Shown here piece after piece: positions 2,360 through 36,440 of a DNA stretch of 48,538 nt. Source of the stretch: a virus (lineage: Duplodnaviria > Heunggongvirae > Uroviricota > Caudoviricetes); IMG/VR virus record IMGVR_UViG_2740892445_000002; one strand, 5' to 3'. Each line of letters begins with the position of its first letter. Within the stretch, counting starts at the first letter, position 1. The notes beneath the pieces were generated by a model. The model saw nothing but the letters and a program-made list of their open reading frames with translations, searched no databases and was not told the DNA's origin. The position numbers and the translations under genes were made by a program.

Positions 2360-2688
2360 TAAAAATCGTGGTTTACAGGATTAAAAAGGTGCTATCCGGA
2401 ACCGGAATTCACACAGTGAACTGTGGGTGATCCAGATAATGAGCACTACCGTGATACAAATCACGGTGGTTTTTAACGGTTTTTGCGACACAGAACTTGC
2501 TCCTTATTACGGAGAGGCGCTAACCTGCCACTTGCTTAAGGTAGACGGTTCAGGGCCTCGGGTTAACATTGAAGTTGACTCGGGGCCTTTTCACATCAGG
2601 CCTTCAGGTGTTCCCTCCGGCCATCAGCCAAAGGCACCCGCGCATACTGTACGGTTTTATATCCTTCCGGCAATTCCGGTCATCATGT

Positions 2689-8595: not shown

Positions 8596-9759
8596 TCAGA
8601 ACTGATAAGTCATCCCAACAGCAACGATATTATCTGTCGCAATACCGGCTTTCTGGGTAAATTCGCTTTCATCAATCAGGTTAATTTTATAATCAACATA
8701 AGTGGACATATTTTTGTTAAAGTAATAAGTCGCACCGACATCAATATATTTAACCAGATCCTGGTCGCCATGGTTCACACCACCAACCATAACATCCTGT
8801 CCGCGGGACTGCAGATAAGCCAGAGATGGACGCAGGCCAAAATCGAACTGATACTGAGCAACCATTTCAAGGTTTTGTGCTTTATCCGCAACCCCGGTAT
8901 CACCAAAAGTGGTCATATTCTGGGTTTCGGAATAAATTGCAGCCAGATACAGATTGTTTGCATCATATTTAAGGCCAGTCCCCCACATCTCAGCATACTT
9001 ACCTTTTGCAACGCTGCCGGAATCAACGGACACTTCTTTTTCCGTCACATCCCCCGTTAAAGGATCTTTGACTTCAATAGTTTTGCTACCATTCAGGCCA
9101 TTAACCTGCTTACCTGTACGATCTGACTTAGTATACGCTGCCACAAAACCAAAACCATCAAACTCATAGCTGGCAGAGAAACCATATCCATCACCATTAG
9201 ACTTCTGGAGGTCATCTCGCTCATTTTTTCCCTGATACTGGGCTGCAAAGTTAAGACCATCCACCAGTCCGAAGAAATCTGTATTGCGGTAAGTCAGCAC
9301 TCCGGAAGTACGAGCAGTCATGAAGTTATCAGTCTGCGTCCAGCCATCGCCACCAAATTCTGGCAGAACGTCTGTATACGAACCGACATCATAAGCGATA
9401 CCATAATTACGCCCGTAATCAATGCTACCTAAATCAGCGAATTTCAAACCGGCAAATGCCAGACGGGTTTTATTGCCTGCCGTCCCTTCAGACTCGGCCT
9501 TATTACCTGAAAACTGATATTCCCAGTGACCAAAACCTGTCAGTTGATCATTGATCTGAGTCTCACCTTTAAAACCAAGACGTGCATAGGTCTTATCGCC
9601 ATCATCACCTTTATCGTCTGAGAAGTAATGGAGAGCAGTTACACGACCATAAAGATCCAGCTTATTACCATCTTTATTATAAACTTCTGCTGCCTGAGCC
9701 CCCGCAGCAAACATCACTGCCACTGCAACAGCAGAAAGTGCCACTGTCATTTTTTTCAT
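8596..9759 (-). CDS. OmpC/OmpF/PhoE-family general porin (phage moron)
   Basis: 387 aa; signal peptide then [17 protein letters not shown]..., C-terminal YVDYKINL...VGMTYQF porin signature; inserted between tail genes M and L with AT-rich upstream region. Confidence 0.9.
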
Positions 9760-9992: not shown

Positions 9993-10322
9993 TCAGCTTA
10001 CTACCTGTTTAAACTCAGCACTAAATTCCACACGCAGCATATTTATCCTGGAGGTCCATTTAGCACACGTCACCTTTATCTGCCTGTACGTATAAGGCGG
10101 CGTCCACAGAAACGCCTTCCAACCCCCGTGCTCTGCCAGAAAATCTTCCAGCCGTCTGGCATCATCACGGGACACAGACAGCGAAACGTTGTAGATTTTC
10201 AGATCCGCATTCAGCCCGGCAGGCGCACGCTGGGAATACCCGTCCCCAAAACGCACTTCCATAACCGACGGCTCAGAGGTCACTTCCATTCCCGGCTTCA
10301 CTTTCCAGCGAAATGTTTTCAA
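9993..10322 (-). CDS. M: minor tail protein M
   Basis: 109 aa, MKTFRWKVKPGM... as in lambda gpM. Confidence 0.9.
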   Translation of the reverse strand: MKTFRWKVKPGMEVTSEPSVMEVRFGDGYSQRAPAGLNADLKIYNVSLSVSRDDARRLEDFLAEHGGWKAFLWTPPYTYRQIKVTCAKWTSRINMLRVEFSAEFKQVVS

Positions 10323-22968: not shown

Positions 22969-23449
22969 CAAGTAAATCCGGTAATTTATCCCCTGCCCGC
23001 GCACACTGATTTGCGCCCTTTGCAATAAGGGTTTTCAGATGTTCAATATGACGTGGCGTTAAATCCGGGAACTGTCGCTGCATGGATAAAGGGATGGAAT
23101 CAAGCGTACTGGATAACGCCATTGCCAGCTTACTGAGGGCAAAAATACAGAATCCGGTGTCGATCAGTTTTCCTTTTGACACCTCATTTTTTAGCTGTTG
23201 TGTAACGGCCTGTTCTGCTGTCAGTTCCCATCTGGCAATAAGCAATTTCTCTTCATAATCTTCTTCCGGCTCACCATCAGACACATCGTTTTTACTTCTC
23301 CTCAGATACGATATGTAAAAATCACGCCAGGCATCCAGATCCAGTTGCCCTCGCTTATTCGAGACCGGAGCACCCGGTAATTTCTGCAATCTGCGAAGCT
23401 GGCGATCGGTCAGACTTAAATGCCTGGCAACTTCAGTCTGCGTAGCCAC
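22940..23449 (-). CDS. Nu1: terminase small subunit (Nu1-like)
   Basis: 169 aa directly upstream of A and downstream of cos; C-terminal half Nu1-like, N-terminal HTH divergent. Confidence 0.8.
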   Translation of the reverse strand: MATQTEVARHLSLTDRQLRRLQKLPGAPVSNKRGQLDLDAWRDFYISYLRRSKNDVSDGEPEEDYEEKLLIARWELTAEQAVTQQLKNEVSKGKLIDTGFCIFALSKLAMALSSTLDSIPLSMQRQFPDLTPRHIEHLKTLIAKGANQCARAGDKLPDLLDEYIRATTE

Positions 23450-23489
23450 TCCTCACCTCGCAAAAACTCTCACCTCACAATCACGACAA

Positions 23490-23680
23490 AACCGGTCATG
23501 TCCGGTTCACATGCTCATTTTTTGCGCATGTCCGGTTCACAGAAGACCTGTTTTTATATTTTTCATATAGTTAACTTGCAGAGAAACCGGACATGGATCC
23601 CGGAAAATTTTCATAAATAGTGAAAACGCGCGAGGTCGCCGCCCCGTAGCCTGCCGGATCGCCGGAAAGGACCCACAAAA
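23490..23680 (-). other. lambda-type cos site (cosQ-cosN-cosB)
   Basis: Minus strand reads ...GGGTCCTTTCCGGCGATCCGGCAGGCTACGGGGCGGCGACCTCGCGCGTTTTCACTATTTATGAAAATTTTCCGGG, nearly the lambda cos junction as I recall it, including the 12-nt GGGCGGCGACCT end (about 23633-23644); three ATGTCCGGTT repeats (two direct, one inverted) in the cosB position. Confidence 0.75.
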
Positions 23681-23843
23681 TGATAATAATTATCATCTAC
23701 ATGTCACAACGTGCATCTACGCCATCAAACCACGTCAAATAATCAATTATGACGCAGGTATCGTATTAATTGATCTGCATCAACTTAACGTAAAAACAAC
23801 TTCAGACAATACAAATCAACGACACTGAATACGGGGCAACCTC

Positions 23844-24038
23844 ATGTCAACTAAGAATAGAACCCGCAGAACAACAACCCGCAACATCCGCTTTCCTAAC
23901 CAAATGATTGAACAAATCAACATCGCTCTTGATCAAAAAGGGTCCGGGAATTTCTCAGCCTGGGTCATTGAAGCCTGCCGTCGGAGACTAACGTCAGAAA
24001 AGAGAGCATATACATCAATCCAAAGTGATGATGAATGA
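23844..24038 (+). CDS. small ribbon-helix-helix-like protein (YlcI/DUF3950-like)
   Basis: 64 aa, MSTKNRTRRTTTRNIRFPNQMIEQINIALDQKGSGNFSAWVIEACRRRL...; resembles small prophage proteins of the DLP12 ylcI type. Confidence 0.5.
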   Translation: MSTKNRTRRTTTRNIRFPNQMIEQINIALDQKGSGNFSAWVIEACRRRLTSEKRAYTSIQSDDE

Positions 24039-24170
24039 ACATCCCGGTTTCTTCCACCATCGCACCGGAAAAGCGACTATGAGGGTAACCCTGCGTCTGT
24101 CAGCACAGTAAAACCCGGTATGCATCGCTTTTGATTATCTCCGCACACTCGTGCAGAGGAGTATCCCGTA

Positions 24171-24356
24171 ATGGCTGCGGTCTCTGTTAATGCGGGAACA
24201 CGGCGACAATACAGCGCCAGTTATGGGTATGAAAATCCTCACCAGCGCAAAGCTATATCAACCTGTAGTGATGCAAAATTACCCGTAGCAAAAGGTATCT
24301 CCGCACATATGCAAGAACACAGCCTTAAAAACTCAGATGAAATAATGATTTGTTAA
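24171..24356 (+). CDS. hypothetical small protein
   Basis: 61 aa ORF with GAGGAG Shine-Dalgarno 9 nt upstream; no family recognised. Confidence 0.3.
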   Translation: MAAVSVNAGTRRQYSASYGYENPHQRKAISTCSDAKLPVAKGISAHMQEHSLKNSDEIMIC

Positions 24357-24403
24357 GATTTATATTATATGTTCGACATGGTACAACACTTAAGGGATGA
24401 AAT

Positions 24404-24946
24404 ATGAACAGATACTCTAAACTTCAAATTCAATTACATTGGCTGACTCTCGTATTAATAGCTATAGCCTGTGCTGCAATGGAACTTCGAGGTTTGTTTC
24501 CTAAAGGGTCTTCCTCCTATTTGCTTATGAGAGAAACACATTACAATGCTGGTATATTTATTCTTCTACTGATGATAATAAGAGTAATTATCAATAATAA
24601 ATATATAACACCAGCTATTACGCCGCCCCCACCTGCATGGCAAATGATATCAGCCAAATTCATGCAAACCCTGTTATACATATCTTTTTTGGTGTTACCA
24701 GTATCAGGACTTGCAATCATGGTTTTTGGAGGTAAAGCATGGAGCCTTCTGGGGATTGATATTCCCACTTTCGCTAACACCGACGGAGAAGTAAAATCCG
24801 TAGCCAAAACTATTCATGAATCACTTGCAAATATTGGTTATTTATTAATCACACTCCATGCTGGCGCTGCATTAATTCATCATTATATTCAGAAGGACAA
24901 TACACTTGTCAGAATGCTCCCTGAGCACCAGCATGATAAAAAGTGA
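24404..24946 (+). CDS. cytochrome b561 family protein (moron in bor position)
   Basis: 180 aa, four predicted transmembrane helices, conserved His positions typical of the CybB/b561 family. Confidence 0.8.
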   Translation: MNRYSKLQIQLHWLTLVLIAIACAAMELRGLFPKGSSSYLLMRETHYNAGIFILLLMIIRVIINNKYITPAITPPPPAWQMISAKFMQTLLYISFLVLPVSGLAIMVFGGKAWSLLGIDIPTFANTDGEVKSVAKTIHESLANIGYLLITLHAGAALIHHYIQKDNTLVRMLPEHQHDKK

Positions 24947-24966
24947 GGAAGAGAAGAATCATCACT

Positions 24967-24992
24967 CTGACAGGTATTTTATAATACCTGTC
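24967..24992. terminator. palindromic hairpin between convergent cytochrome b561 and Rz genes
   Basis: TGACAGGTA-ttttataa-TACCTGTCA perfect 9-bp inverted repeat. Confidence 0.5.
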
Positions 24993-25020
24993 ACACTCTG
25001 TACCTCAGTTTCAGTGACTA

Positions 25021-25527
25021 TTAATACGTCTCTGTCAGATAACTTGAATCTCTGACTGAATTATAAATGCGTTCACATGTCAATCCAGCGCGGTAATTTT
25101 CGTCAGCGCGTTTAGCATAATATCCAGCTTCTTCTGCAAGGCTTCCGAGCATGTCGGCGAGCATTGCGACGTTGCTTTCGATTGTTTTGCTTCTGACGGT
25201 AGCGGCAATATTTGCGGTATGCTCTGCCGCTTCCAGTCTGACGGTAAGCTTTGTTGCTTTTTCCCGCAACTGACTAACAGTGGCAGATAAACCAGCAGCA
25301 GTAGCATTGGCTTTGACAGCTTTCTCTTGTGCATCTTTGACAGCCTCATCACGGGCAACAATACGCCCCTGTTCAATCATCCTGACAGCAATCTGCGTAT
25401 TAACAATCTGCGACGACTCTTCACTGTCCCGCTCAGCCCATTTCGTTTGCCATTCTCTTTCACACCAGACATTTCCAGCAATAAATGAGCCAATTGACAG
25501 CAATACAATGGCCACAAGCTTAATCAA
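25021..25527 (-). CDS. Rz: i-spanin (Rz-like)
   Basis: 168 aa, N-terminal TM helix then coiled coil; start overlaps endolysin stop (ATGA). Confidence 0.8.
   Translation of the reverse strand: MIKLVAIVLLSIGSFIAGNVWCEREWQTKWAERDSEESSQIVNTQIAVRMIEQGRIVARDEAVKDAQEKAVKANATAAGLSATVSQLREKATKLTVRLEAAEHTANIAATVRSKTIESNVAMLADMLGSLAEEAGYYAKRADENYRAGLTCERIYNSVRDSSYLTETY
25080..25307 (-). CDS. Rz1: o-spanin lipoprotein (Rz1-like) embedded in Rz in +1 frame
   Basis: Internal Met then MLLLLVYLPLLVSCGKK lipobox; fully nested within Rz. Confidence 0.6.
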   Translation of the reverse strand: MLLLLVYLPLLVSCGKKQQSLPSDWKRQSIPQILPLPSEAKQSKATSQCSPTCSEALQKKLDIMLNALTKITALD

Positions 25528-26174: not shown

Positions 26175-26489
26175 ATGAACAGTAAAGAAAGTTTGCGCAG
26201 AAGATTTTTACAACTAATGACAGAAAACGTTAAATCAGAGTTACTTCTTCAGATGGCGGACAATAACGAAGTAACGAGCAGCATTCTTGCAGACCCTTAC
26301 GGTAAACTCTCACATAAAACGCTTGATATTATTACCACAACATTAACACCACTGATGCTTCAACGGCTGAAACATAATATCAACGCATGGGTTAATGAAG
26401 AATTAAGTCCTCCCTGCTTATGGGATTCTCGTTACGCATGTCAGCAAAAAATGCGAATTTTCAACTTACTATCACCAAAGCTCAGGTAG
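26175..26489 (+). CDS. hypothetical protein, YdfR-like (DUF1327-type), opposite strand between holin and endolysin
   Basis: 104 aa, AT-rich gene with GAGG Shine-Dalgarno 8 nt upstream; position matches ydfR of Qin. Confidence 0.55.
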   Translation: MNSKESLRRRFLQLMTENVKSELLLQMADNNEVTSSILADPYGKLSHKTLDIITTTLTPLMLQRLKHNINAWVNEELSPPCLWDSRYACQQKMRIFNLLSPKLR

Positions 26490-29642: not shown

Positions 29643-29814
29643 TGCTCCTCCCGGACGGGATAATGTGTTAACTAAGATGAGAGAGCAGGTGACAGCCCCG
29701 GCCGCATGAAAGTTCTGAGAGGGAAGTGCTGCCTGCTGCTCCATTGCACAGATTAATTACTGTCTGGTAGTATTCAGTGGCTGATTAGAATACTTCACAT
29801 TTTGTTATTTTGTG

Positions 29815-29846
29815 CAGCCCGTTACCATTCGTAGCGGGCTTTTTTT
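29815..29846 (+). terminator. plus-strand hairpin plus T-run upstream of nanS-p
   Basis: AGCCCG-ttaccattcgta-CGGGCT followed by TTTTTTT. Confidence 0.4.
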
Positions 29847-29851
29847 GTCCA

Positions 29852-29876
29852 TAAAAAAGCCCCTCCGGAGAGGGGC
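29852..29876 (-). terminator. intrinsic terminator after repeat unit 1
   Basis: Minus-strand GCCCCUC-UCCG-GAGGGGC followed by UUUUUUAU. Confidence 0.6.
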
Positions 29877-29898
29877 ATACTAGCTATATATCCATTTA

Positions 29899-30026
29899 TC
29901 ATTGGCTGCGTGGTGCCGGGTGCCTCCCGGTGAGCTCAGTCTGGTGTCACTGAGCCCGCACATTCTCGATCCAAGTTATCGTCGGAGATAATACCTGATA
30001 CACCAGACGCCCCTCCGCACAGGGGG
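29899..30026 (-). repeat. tRNA-like cloverleaf repeat unit 1 (candidate structured ncRNA)
   Basis: Conserved blocks GGTGCCGGGTGCCTCCCGGTG and CCCCTCCGCACAGGGGGATTCACCA; terminal stem CGTGGTG/CACCACG; variable interior. Confidence 0.5.
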
Positions 30027-30263
30027 ATTCACCACGCGCAGAGAAGGATACTGAACACTATTTTCTCCAGGCAATATGCAATAACATGAAGTGTGAGATG
30101 ACTTACAATTATAAAAAACAGCCTACAGAATACTCCTAAATAAAGCCATATCAAAATGAGTAACACAAAAAGGAACCAGGCAAAAATTTACGAGCAGGTA
30201 TTATCCAGCAACAGTTCAGACGCCATAACTTATTGCCGATAGCTACCATCAATAATTTCTTTC

Positions 30264-30289
30264 ATAAAAAAGCCCCTCTGAAGAGGGGC
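30264..30289 (-). terminator. intrinsic terminator after repeat unit 2
   Basis: Minus-strand GCCCCUC-UUCA-GAGGGGC followed by UUUUUUAU. Confidence 0.6.
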
Positions 30290-30316
30290 TGACATACGCA
30301 TTTGCTTTCATCATCA

Positions 30317-30439
30317 ATATGGCGCCGGGTGCCTCCCGGTGCTCCATAACTGATTAATATGGAACGCGGTTTCATTCAGTTGCATTCATGAATAACACTC
30401 TAATCAGTCCGCCCCGCCGCTTAGGGGGATTCGCCATAT
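30317..30439 (-). repeat. tRNA-like cloverleaf repeat unit 2 (candidate structured ncRNA)
   Basis: Same blocks with compensatory changes (GGCGCC... / ...GATTCGCCA); terminal stem ATATGGCG/CGCCATAT; interior closed by ACTGATTA/TAATCAGT. Confidence 0.5.
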
Positions 30440-30574
30440 AAATTGAAAGTACTGAACACATCTGTCACAAACAATATGCAATTGTATGAATTGTGAGATT
30501 ATTATCAATAACACAAAATTACAGCTCTAGTACATAAACAGCAGATTAAACAAGAACAACAAAAGTATTGAATT

Positions 30575-30697
30575 GCACGGTGCCGGGTGCCTCCCGGTGA
30601 ATTCTGCAATGACCAGACAGAATCCGCAACTTGCTACTAACGCTAATGCGACCAAGCCTCAGTCATTATGCCCCTCCGCACAGGGGGATTCACCATG
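30575..30697 (-). repeat. tRNA-like cloverleaf repeat unit 3 (candidate structured ncRNA)
   Basis: Same conserved blocks; terminal stem GCACGGTG/CACCATGC (one mismatch); interior closed by AATGAC/GTCATT. Confidence 0.5.
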
Positions 30698-30827
30698 CGC
30701 TAAAAAAATACAAAACGTCACGTCACTCTGACAATACGAAGCACCATAAAATGTGAGTTATTTATCAATTCTTAATTCTGGTTACAGGAATATTCCGAAT
30801 CAAATCTTTAAAAAAAGAAATTCAAAT

Positions 30828-30930
30828 GCATGGTGCCGGGTGCCTCCCGGTGAACAGACCGTCCGTGATACCAGTAGGCAACACAGGAAATTAATGGTAT
30901 CACCCCACCGCACAGGGGGATTCACCATGC
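30828..30930 (-). repeat. tRNA-like cloverleaf repeat unit 4 (candidate structured ncRNA)
   Basis: Same conserved blocks; terminal stem GCATGGTG/CACCATGC; interior closed by GTGATACCA/TGGTATCAC. Confidence 0.5.
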
Positions 30931-31320
30931 AGGCGTTTTCTTAGCAAACTAACTGCGCGCCCGGCAACTCCCAACCACATAAAACGTGGAGTTTGTAGCA
31001 TTTATGCACATAACTCACAGGGGTTATCTTAAAAAAAGCTGACCATGCTTCCCCGGCAACGCAATAACTTTATTCCCTGAAGTGGCATCCCCCGTATTGT
31101 CGGCAGGCTCAAAAAGGAGCCAGTCATCTGAGGATGACTGGAAAAAGGAAAGATAAAAAATTATTCATCATACAACCTTCGTTGCAGGGGAGAATCCTGC
31201 GGTGCAGCAACATACAAAAACATAAGCCAACTAACAATATGCAGGCATAGCATTTTCGGATTTTGTTATATGGCACGGTAACTGAATGCTTACCTGATAT
31301 ACAGTCCGGTATAAAGTTGC

Positions 31321-31342
31321 AAAAAACCGCCAGTTAAGGCGG
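31321..31342 (-). terminator. intrinsic terminator downstream of tRNA genes
   Basis: Minus-strand CCGCC-UUAACU-GGCGG followed by UUUUUU. Confidence 0.55.
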
Positions 31343-31582
31343 CATTCAAACAGACAACAGGATTTTTTCGTAATTTTAACAACTTCGGGGTGGCGCATCG
31401 TCAGCCCCTGTCAGGAAGTACCAGAACTCCCACCAACAATATCCCCCCATTCAGCGTTATCAAACACAGCACAGAAACTATCAATGTTTGCTGTTACAGT
31501 TAGGGAAAAAACGATAAATACGCCACAGGCTCTTTTTGCTGTGAAGTAAAAACTGATCTGAAAGACTGCTCATCATTTATTT

Positions 31583-31660
31583 TGCTGGACCGTCACCGGG
31601 GACTCGAACCCCGCATTTTCAACATAAAAAGGTTGATGCTCTTTCCTGATGAGCTAGTGA
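31583..31660 (-). tRNA. tRNA-like gene with 8-nt anticodon loop CUUUUUAU (Lys-UUU-like; possible variant or pseudogene)
   Basis: Acceptor stem CCGTCAC/GTGACGG, D arm GCTC-ATCAGGAAA-GAGC, T arm CGGGG-TTCGAGT-CCCCG, encoded CCA; anticodon loop one nt too long. Confidence 0.55.
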
Positions 31661-31662
31661 CG

Positions 31663-31737
31663 GCATGGTTGCCTTGCTGGATTTGAACCAGCGACCTGGC
31701 GATTATGAGTCTCTCGCTCTCACCACTGAGCTAAAGG
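31663..31737 (-). tRNA. tRNA-like gene with CAU anticodon (Met/Ile2-like), imperfect acceptor and anticodon stems; possible pseudogene
   Basis: D arm GCTC-AGTGGTGA-GAGC, anticodon loop CTCATAA, T arm GCTGG-TTCAAAT-CCAGC, CCA; only 4 of 7 acceptor pairs form by my reading. Confidence 0.45.
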
Positions 31738-31780
31738 GCCGGGAACAGAATAATAATGGTGCGTAATTAATTCTGCAATC

Positions 31781-36107: not shown

Positions 36108-36263
36108 TTACTTCTCAGATTCGTAAGCTGTGAAGACAGCGACCTCCGTCTGGCCGGTTCGGATTCGTACCTCGCAGAGGTCTTTCCTCGTTACCAGTAC
36201 CGTTACAACGACGGTAATACAGATGACGATCAGGGCGATTAGCATCGCCTTTTGCTGCTTCAT
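36108..36263 (-). CDS. hokD: Hok-family type I toxin (HokD/RelF-like)
   Basis: 51 aa MKQQKAMLIALIVICITVVVTVLVTRKDLCEVRIRTGQTEVAVFTAYESEK, near-identical to my recollection of HokD. Confidence 0.9.
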   Translation of the reverse strand: MKQQKAMLIALIVICITVVVTVLVTRKDLCEVRIRTGQTEVAVFTAYESEK

Positions 36264-36440
36264 AGCCTGCTGCTCCTTGCCTTTCGGCGCGTAAGAGGCT
36301 AATCTAAGTGTGCAAGTCATAGATATGGCCTCAGATTAATGTTAAGCGTCCTGCAAGACGCATAATGTTAACTGGGGCTTTTCTCTGTCTGCCTTACGTC
36401 GGCATGCCCGAGGCAGACAGCCTCAAGCACCCGCAGCAAT
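36264..36440. promoter_or_regulatory. hok mRNA leader / mok start / antisense Sok region
   Basis: Minus-strand leader GGGUGCUUGAGGCUGUCUGCCUC... resembles hok mRNA 5' end; in-frame upstream start MTCTLRL... Confidence 0.45.

Follow-up and report, generated by a model that had tools for sequence, protein, structure and literature searches.

We analysed a cytochrome b561 gene carried by a prophage on a 48,538-nucleotide stretch of DNA (IMG/VR record IMGVR_UViG_2740892445_000002; the whole stretch is called the window here). The window is a lambdoid prophage that lies beside potC, has its late genes on the minus strand and is essentially identical to a prophage of the mouse E. coli strain M3. 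The cytochrome gene is found between cos and the spanin gene, in a short unit that appears to have been acquired in place of bor. This unit, its parts and its two landmarks are listed below.

23633-23644, minus strand: cosN (GGGCGGCGACCT), the left landmark of the slot; the lone exact match, with 0.01 expected by chance.
24218-24994, plus strand: putative acquired unit ("moron") in place of bor, consisting of a predicted promoter region, the cytochrome b561 gene and a 3' hairpin; delimited by homology breakpoints and low G+C content.
24341-24357, plus strand: candidate activator site, a PmrA/BasR-type direct repeat (AATAAT-gattt-GTTAAG) conserved across genera.
24368-24373, plus strand: predicted -10-like hexamer TATGTT, 10 nt downstream of the direct-repeat box.
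24404-24946, plus strand: predicted di-haem cytochrome b561 gene of the YodB/STM1253 clade (180 amino acids; PF01292), with a Shine-Dalgarno sequence AAGGG at 24392-24396.
24968-24993, no strand assigned: hairpin with a perfect 11-bp stem (arms 24968-24978 and 24983-24993, 100% complementary in an inverted-repeat scan) and a 4-nt loop.
25021-25527, minus strand: DUF2514 Rz-like inner-membrane spanin (i-spanin) gene, the right landmark (PF10721, E 2e-44; phrog_312 "Rz-like spanin", E 7e-50).

Linear phage records terminate at window positions 23641-23646 in a megablast comparison with 50,697 GenBank phage genomes, and the small and large terminase genes lie to the left of cos on the minus strand. 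To its right there are three plus-strand open reading frames (ORFs), placed as in a preliminary description of this DNA and annotated likewise in the RefSeq records of E. coli M3 and CI5. In the same comparison, an identity of ~95% to many lambdoid phages (434, Turner, mEp332 and many "Lambda_ev" isolates) was restricted to window positions 23600-24217. Phages 434 and Turner have the gene order cos, DUF3950, bor and convergent Rz, and their homology to the window ends at 24217, which bears out the earlier claim that the new genes stand where lambda carries bor. In 2H10 and Tritos, phages with a DUF2514 spanin, the slot is filled by cold-shock, gnsB, ynfN or ybcV genes. Judged by these gene orders, the stretch between the DUF3950 gene and the spanin gene is the classical variable cargo slot, whose other known contents include cspI/gnsB/ynfN of Qin-type phages and ybcV/ybcW of DLP12. 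On the far side of the spanin gene, which itself contains an embedded ORF (~25080-25334) with the lipobox LLVSC as a candidate outer-membrane spanin, the lysozyme gene and then a class II holin gene follow.

The left homology breakpoint of the unit falls at 24217/24218. On the right side, Rz homology to phages 2H10, mEp460 and Tritos resumes at ~25035-25060, placing the breakpoint at ~24995-25060. An independent, 82%-identical copy on a metagenomic contig (L025) shares only 24371-24990 with the window, and the match ends directly past the hairpin. The G+C content is 0.33-0.39 in the unit (0.378 in the cytochrome coding sequence) versus 0.45-0.5 in the flanks. Two of the marks by which morons are recognized, presence or absence among homologous phages with sharp breakpoints and a base composition unlike that of the flanks, were therefore both found. 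As to the third, a promoter and a terminator of its own, the unit has a conserved box and a -10-like hexamer in a region where a generic promoter scan stayed at chance level, and its hairpin is not followed by a U-tract. The cytochrome gene shares with bor of lambda and 434 the slot from the DUF3950 gene to the convergent spanin gene, the orientation antisense to the late operon and the variation between presence and absence. The likeness stops at the genomic slot: none of the three ORFs matched PF06291 (Lambda Bor family), and Bor is an outer-membrane lipoprotein of that family, unrelated to the haem protein of the prophage, which is predicted to lie in the inner membrane.

The 180-residue protein scored 88.5 bits against PF01292 (cut-off 30.1) over profile positions 1-178 of 179, and its sequence matched the CybB structure 5OC0, the only solved relative, at E 8.6e-42. 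An AlphaFold model built with 60 homologues had a predicted local distance difference test score (pLDDT) of 93.8 and four transmembrane helices (residues 6-29, 37-66, 78-109 and 128-162). In a Foldseek search this model matched 5OC0 with a template modelling (TM) score of 0.90, a root-mean-square deviation of 1.6 Å and E 2e-13, and the next matches in the PDB had TM scores of <0.5. The haem ligands H13, H45, H137 and H151 of CybB correspond to H12, H46, H138 and H152 of the prophage protein and are invariant in the 60 homologues, as are H159 and D165, the counterparts of the quinone-site pair H158-D164 of CybB. All 14 full-length Escherichia variants keep the four haem histidines together with H159 and D165. 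The gene product, on these alignments and the model, looks like a real and functional four-helix, two-haem cytochrome b561 of the inner membrane, with haem binding as a prediction. The preliminary description had called it a four-helix cytochrome b561 and had proposed an alignment of the haem histidines with CybB as a check; the family score, the four-helix model and the structural match to 5OC0 agree with the former, and the alignment shows all four ligands conserved.

The prophage cytochrome was compared with the three paralogues that E. coli K-12 has; it shares 61% of its residues with YodB, 43% with CybB and 29% with YceJ. Its identity was 55% to a Salmonella protein (P0028) and 64-70% to Citrobacter proteins (64-68% to the Citrobacter orthologues), and a neighbour-joining tree placed it inside the YodB clade, next to the Citrobacter proteins and with the Salmonella protein. 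Going by the tree and these identities, the prophage cytochrome belongs to the YodB/STM1253 clade and is not CybB itself. It has the same length, invariant residues and upstream box with a -10 element as E. coli YodB (b1974) and Salmonella STM1253/STY1868 ("cytochrome b561 homologue 1"). One difference is the locus. The chromosomal genes are found in the order zinT-yodB-serU in E. coli (P0012, beside zinT, is YodB itself) and next to a sap-like ABC transporter in Salmonella, whereas the prophage copy occupies the bor slot. P0028, which lies beside the sap-like ABC transporter, a TRL lipoprotein gene and a BNR-repeat gene, fits the published description of STM1253/STY1868 and is probably that protein. 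At the Citrobacter chromosomal locus of the STM1253 type, a Bor-family lipoprotein gene (L009-L012, 3017-3316) and a DinI gene (L012, 6741-6983) were seen within 3 kb of the cytochrome gene, which hints at old phage traffic there.

The exact DNA occurs in 4/5,426 complete E. coli genomes, namely those of M1, M3 and M18 (mouse) and CI5 (human). Each of the four carrier records holds a second place of ~67% identity, and in non-carrier genomes such matches are annotated as yodB. The second match is taken to be the chromosomal yodB, so that the prophage copy would be an extra paralogue. E. coli, E. ruysiae and other Escherichia together contribute 18 sequence variants to the 90% cluster of the cytochrome, and the DUF3950-cytochrome-DUF2514 arrangement was found in every long contig examined. 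Genes of ~70% identity are present in the IMG/VR contigs L043-L045, where they lie between HNH/Terminase_4/TerL genes and a holin-lysozyme-spanin cassette in another phage backbone, and the equivalent slot also holds the gene in a Citrobacter freundii/portucalensis cluster (P0008, 495 members; loci L051-L055). Because the lysozyme (~80%), the DUF2514 spanin (64-69%) and the cytochrome (~70%) of L043-L045 are all homologous to those of the window, the lysis-plus-cytochrome block looks like an old mosaic module and not like one captured recently in E. coli.

No cultured phage was found to carry the gene by megablast and tblastn against the GenBank phage genomes; the tblastn matches were limited to the yodB fragment in the host flank of SerU-LTIIb and to distant yceJ-like genes from Acinetobacter. 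The cytochrome matches the PHROGs family phrog_31729, which is without annotation, and a search of the literature available to us found no paper on a prophage-borne cytochrome b561.

Two possible origins of the prophage copy were considered and set aside. One was a direct capture that would link E. coli yodB with a prophage integrated at the adjacent serU tRNA gene. The copy is closer to the Citrobacter and prophage copies, and the lysozyme-Rz-cytochrome block is homologous to that of Citrobacter prophages. The other was transport by an IS200/IS605 insertion sequence (IS). The 82%-identical copy of L025 abuts the 3' end of a TnpB gene, no IS remnant flanks the window copy, and the insertion is most likely unrelated. 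In L025 (1-377), the TnpB 3' end with its terminal GC hairpin lies 33 bp upstream of the cytochrome ATG, and the insertion removes the PmrA-like box. Other yodB-like genes lie close to prophage ends or lysis genes, as seen with SerU-LTIIb and L046. In E. coli 41, the end of the SerU-LTIIb prophage is ~570 bp from yodB (L048, 9169-10126), and at the end of an IMG/VR contig (L046, 1-1328) ~300 bp separate a Hafnia-type YodB homologue from a DUF2514 spanin gene. Chromosomal yodB genes appear often to border prophages that integrate at serU.

For the upstream region, 150 nt from ten copies were aligned: those of the window, a decayed E. coli copy, two IMG/VR prophages, C. portucalensis, two Citrobacter chromosomal loci, E. 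coli yodB, Hafnia and Pragia. One block, TAAgGatTTgTTAAGcT, was strongly conserved (invariant TAA..G..TT.TTAAG), and an invariant TAnnnT, represented in the window by the -10-like hexamer, follows exactly 10 nt later. The upstream pattern of the YodB/STM1253 clade, xATAAG-N5-xTTAAG with TAnnnT 10 nt later, is also that of the window copy; the box reads TATAAG-gaatt-TTTAAG in E. coli yodB and TTTAAG-gttct-GTTAAG at the equivalent place in Salmonella. A PmrA box consists of CTTAAG and xTTAAT hexamers arranged head to tail and 5 bp apart (PMC3973317). The direct repeat of the window occupies the usual -35 position, and no -35 element was found at the proper spacing upstream of the -10-like hexamer, as would be expected of an activator-dependent promoter. 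A search for known RNA families in 23400-25300 gave nothing credible, the best match being a plant microRNA model at E 0.98.

The regulation of the chromosomal relatives has been described. STM1252/53 is among the known PmrA-regulated genes and was 372-fold PreA-induced by quantitative reverse transcription-PCR (PMC2653508), and STM1253 is induced by PmrA/PmrB (PMC3344905). In iron-adapted lines of E. coli B, yodB co-varies with eptA, arnA-C, pmrR, ugd and basR (PMC13405929). Because the box is conserved across genera and this regulation has been published, and not on account of a motif score, we infer that the BasSR/PmrAB system of the host, or possibly QseBC, still controls the prophage copy.

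The hairpin is located 21 nt past the stop codon of the cytochrome gene and 27 nt past that of Rz. Its fold z-scores were -3.2 on the plus strand and -2.5 on the minus strand; four of the 11 pairs of the stem are G-C, and neither strand has a T-run after it. In the homologous hairpin of L025, one A-T pair has become G-C by a compensatory change and one U-A pair has become U-G, the latter keeping the pairing only in plus-strand RNA. At the equivalent place, a different hairpin is found in the prophage copies of Citrobacter. Because it travels with the 82%-identical copy elsewhere and shows a compensatory change there, the hairpin most likely belongs to the cytochrome transcript, as its 3' end or as a stability element. 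The preliminary description had the cassette end at a perfect palindromic hairpin shared with the convergent Rz gene. The perfect hairpin is there, but it lies beyond the end given for the cassette (24946) and lacks a U-tract, and its role as a terminator shared by the two genes is at most putative.

Selection on the gene was estimated from the ratio of nonsynonymous to synonymous substitution rates (dN/dS) by the method of Nei and Gojobori. The ratio was 0.04-0.18 against relatives of 60-70% identity and 0.05-0.2 among the Citrobacter prophage copies. Compared with two 99%-identical prophages (L019 and L020), the cytochrome gene had three synonymous and no nonsynonymous changes. It was also intact, at 98% identity, in decayed prophages (L022-L024) in which the spanin gene is split into parts of 47 and 134 amino acids and neither ylcI nor the terminase genes remain; one of them, L022, lies next to the trp operon. 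By these comparisons, the cytochrome gene is intact and under purifying selection. Lysogenic conversion is plausible: the gene runs antisense to the late operon, seems to have retained a promoter of the host type and shows purifying selection.

Taken together, we give a probability of about 0.55 to the reading that this is a selectively maintained cytochrome moron of the YodB clade, controlled by BasSR in the lysogen and having a CybB-like redox role; it builds on sequence comparison, the structural model and analogy. According to this reading, the unit at 24218-24994 would have entered the cos-to-spanin slot together with an upstream region and a 3' hairpin of its own. Being transcribed antisense to the late operon of the phage, the gene would be expressed in the lysogen rather than in lytic growth. 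The prophage copy would most likely be switched on by the BasSR/PmrAB envelope-stress system of the host, which responds to Fe3+ and mild acid. In the membrane, electrons would travel between a haem that faces the periplasm and a quinone site on the cytoplasmic face and, by analogy with CybB, periplasmic superoxide would be oxidised and quinone reduced. The lysogen would gain a fourth paralogue beside cybB, yodB and yceJ.

The analogy draws on CybB, the only relative that has been characterised, as a superoxide:quinone oxidoreductase ("superoxide oxidase"; 5OC0). A positive patch of CybB collects superoxide at the periplasmic haem, from where two b haems lead to the cytoplasmic-side quinone; protons are delivered by H158 and D164 (and H87), and the reverse reaction also runs (PMC11869295; bioRxiv 10.1101/2021.12.23.473985). 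The residue roles used here are those given for CybB in PMC11869295. The prophage protein has in common with CybB the fold, the four haem histidines, the H158-D164 pair, R30 and K134. Of the patch residues, R30 and K134 are kept as R29 and K135 and R35 is conservatively replaced by K34, with K111 and K131 nearby. It is unlike CybB in being only 43% identical and below the equivalog cut-off, and in the replacement of H87 by Q, R63 by N, R38 by S and R108 by G.

Several observations weigh against the reading just given. The protein scored 163.7 bits on the CybB equivalog model NF008566, whose cut-off is 170. Of the five superoxide-collecting residues of CybB, two are missing (S stands for R38 and G for R108), and at the quinone site H87 of CybB is replaced by Q88, at a position with histidine in >=90% of the 60 homologues, and R63 by N64. 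The dN/dS ratio was higher, 0.29-0.43, against the two closest relatives. Upstream, the box of the window has three mismatches to YTTAAK-N5-YTTAAK and is not significant alone; a scan of the window with the PmrA consensus gave 39 matches with <=2 mismatches versus 27.8 expected, close to chance, and the generic sigma-70 promoter scan of the region remained at the chance level. The hairpin does not qualify as an intrinsic terminator and was not called by a terminator scan. As for the phenotypes of relatives, virulence in mice was not impaired by mutation of STM1253 (PMC3344905), and a cybB knockout had no growth phenotype (bioRxiv 10.1101/2021.12.23.473985).

The replaced quinone-site residues are shared within a lineage. 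The N64/Q88 pair is fixed in 14/14 full-length variants of the Escherichia phage lineage, the 82%-identical relative (P0002) has K and H at these positions, and the YodB clade has K/R and H there. In CybB, H87 is a proposed proton donor, and H87 and R63 touch each other (PMC11869295). Because the H87A variant of CybB retains ~50-80% activity (PMC11869295), the N64/Q88 pair suggests a remodelled more than a dead quinone site. This remodelling might give the phage version another quinone preference or directionality.

The best placed of the alternatives, which we nevertheless regard as unlikely next to a CybB-like role, leaves the protein and its moron status unchanged and gives it a different redox job: a quinol-driven outward reduction of a periplasmic acceptor, which in an Fe3+-responsive regulon of the PmrA/BasR type could be ferric iron or another oxidant, or the delivery of electrons to a periplasmic partner. 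The reverse reaction of CybB is efficient, and in aerobic cultures the forward reaction is considered improbable (bioRxiv 10.1101/2021.12.23.473985); genes of the YodB clade change together with those Fe3+-induced genes that BasR targets (PMC13405929). The partial loss of the CybB superoxide antenna through R38 to S and R108 to G, and the lineage-wide replacement of R63/H87 by N64/Q88 with the remodelled quinone site that it suggests, point the same way. However, no partner gene accompanies the unit, and the periplasmic loops remain net positive (R29, K34, K111, K131 and K135), which fits an anion-attracting surface.

It is less likely again that the gene is a neutral passenger, picked up by illegitimate or mosaic recombination together with the DUF2514 lysis module and of no benefit to host or phage. 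Its rarity among complete E. coli genomes (4/5,426), the substitutions to Q88 and N64 at otherwise conserved positions, the dN/dS of 0.29-0.43 in the closest comparisons and the lack of a known phenotype in mutants of its relatives (PMC3344905; bioRxiv 10.1101/2021.12.23.473985) would all suit a passenger. Set against them are the low ratios over the longer term (0.04-0.18) and among the Citrobacter prophage copies (0.05-0.2), the catalytic histidines kept in every variant, and the upstream box conserved in phage-borne copies. The gene has also stayed intact in prophage remnants that are without lysis and packaging genes, and distinct phage backbones in two genera have it in the same slot.

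We consider it very unlikely that the protein serves the phage itself, either in superinfection exclusion or by an effect on membrane energisation that tunes holin timing. It is predicted to be an integral inner-membrane protein and is always encoded beside the spanin and lysis genes, but its gene runs opposite to the late operon and follows a host-type promoter region of its own. Moreover, selection keeps the haem and quinone-site residues and not just hydrophobic helices, a PADLOC scan of the three ORFs gave no defence-family match, and chromosomal orthologues are found at non-phage loci. Least credible of all is a cytochrome b subunit of a dehydrogenase or hydrogenase complex, the literal sense of the Pfam name "Ni_hydr_CYTB" and the usual sense of the "respiratory cytochrome" of the preliminary description, for although PF01292 includes the cytochrome b subunits of hydrogenase-1 and formate dehydrogenase and Foldseek gave weak matches to the former, these matches (TM 0.46, E 0.16) fall far short of that to CybB (TM 0.90, E 2e-13), catalytic partner genes for a dehydrogenase or hydrogenase were absent nearby in every context examined, and the protein falls within the stand-alone CybB/YodB lineage, in its YodB/STM1253 clade.

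If the YodB-clade moron is expressed and active in the lysogen, a membrane redox enzyme would join the functions of lysogenic conversion, and the moron would illustrate how phage cargo can retain the binding site for a two-component regulator of the host and be on only under a stress defined by the host. Without expression, it would simply be another passenger in a variable slot that is already well known. A broader claim, that enterobacterial phages repeatedly carry a YodB-type cytochrome wired to PmrAB/BasSR (or QseBC) as an inducible redox form of lysogenic conversion, can be put forward only tentatively from the sequences and the analogy, and we hold it to be on the doubtful side. Were it true, the extra electron conduit of the lysogen could remove periplasmic superoxide or handle Fe3+-linked oxidative damage, in the gut or in phagocytes, and this redox type of lysogenic conversion would be distinct from that of the known phage sodC genes.

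Prophages are known to carry Cu,Zn superoxide dismutases; the periplasmic sodC products of Gifsy-2, Fels-1 and E. coli O157 prophages are such enzymes. If the CybB analogy holds, sodC and the cytochrome gene would be alike as prophage cargo that removes superoxide from the envelope compartment. They differ in fold, cofactor and slot, and dismutation differs from the oxidation coupled to quinone reduction that we propose here for the cytochrome.

Both the phage moron and the YodB-type cytochrome are known kinds, and their combination is not a new kind of system. What the analysis adds is the recurrence in the same slot of unrelated Citrobacter prophages, the retention of a host promoter architecture of the PmrA/BasR type and the fixed N64/Q88 variant. 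The locus also offers a natural handle on the YodB/STM1253 clade, with strains that have or lack the extra copy and a quinone-site variant (N64/Q88) for comparison with CybB.

The two other plus-strand ORFs to the right of cos are as follows.

23844-24038, plus strand: DUF3950 / YlcI-YnfO gene, 64 amino acids (PF13132, 71.4 bits with a cut-off of 25, E 5e-20; NF041551, 36.6 with a cut-off of 30; phrog_949, E 2e-35).
24171-24356, plus strand: 61-amino-acid ORF, judged to be a non-gene; it has no family match, has stops in relatives and spans the mosaic junction.

The YlcI-like identity proposed earlier for the 64-residue protein is confirmed by Pfam and NCBIfam scores that exceed the curated cut-offs. 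It had also been assigned a ribbon-helix-helix (RHH) fold. The protein had no sequence match in the PDB, and a single-sequence AlphaFold model (pLDDT 61, too poor for a fold search) had an extended segment followed by helices at 19-32 and 37-56, an arrangement compatible with RHH. The membership of this gene in an accessory cassette had to be given up: because it lies in the conserved stretch 23600-24217 and is found next to cos in 100+ phage records, it is, on this conservation, an ordinary gene of the lambdoid backbone and not a part of the acquired unit.

The 61-amino-acid ORF matched none of the families of Pfam, NCBIfam, PHROGs and PADLOC. It straddles the breakpoint at 24217/24218 and overlaps the promoter region and box of the cytochrome gene. 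In the 99%-identical prophages L019 and L020 it is interrupted by two in-frame stop codons, and in comparison with the type found in L022-L024 it has five nonsynonymous and two synonymous changes. For these reasons, namely the lack of a family, the overlap with the junction and the promoter region, the stops and the 5:2 ratio of changes, we judge that the ORF is not a gene. Of the three plus-strand genes that had been described, the ORFs themselves exist at the coordinates reported, but only two of them are counted as genes here.

Some further features of the prophage were noted in passing. In the tail module, an ompC-like porin gene (RefSeq "porin OmpC"; 8596-9759, minus strand) is another cargo gene; it lies between the gene for minor tail protein L and a "phage tail protein" gene at 9993-10322. 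There are two Hok/Gef-type toxin genes, one between the J gene and the tail-fibre gene (2381-2491, minus strand) and the other, hokD, in the region of the early/late junction (36117-36272, minus strand). A stretch of ~1.8 kb (29745-31585), located downstream of the genes for antiterminator Q and a DNA methyltransferase and between two phage tRNA genes and a SASA/DUF6645 esterase gene, has no ORF of >=63 amino acids and appears empty or non-coding; we take its position to be the one where Stx phages carry stxAB. The two tRNA genes (31586-31741, minus strand) were called by ARAGORN as a "tRNA-???" with a four-base anticodon (tttt) followed by tRNA-Met (cat), and are annotated in RefSeq as tRNA-Lys and tRNA-Ile; the anticodon loop of the first is possibly unusual. 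An unannotated AT-rich ORF (26217-26489, plus strand; G+C ~0.38) is situated between the genes for lysozyme and holin, runs antisense to the lysis cassette and is possibly a second small cargo unit.

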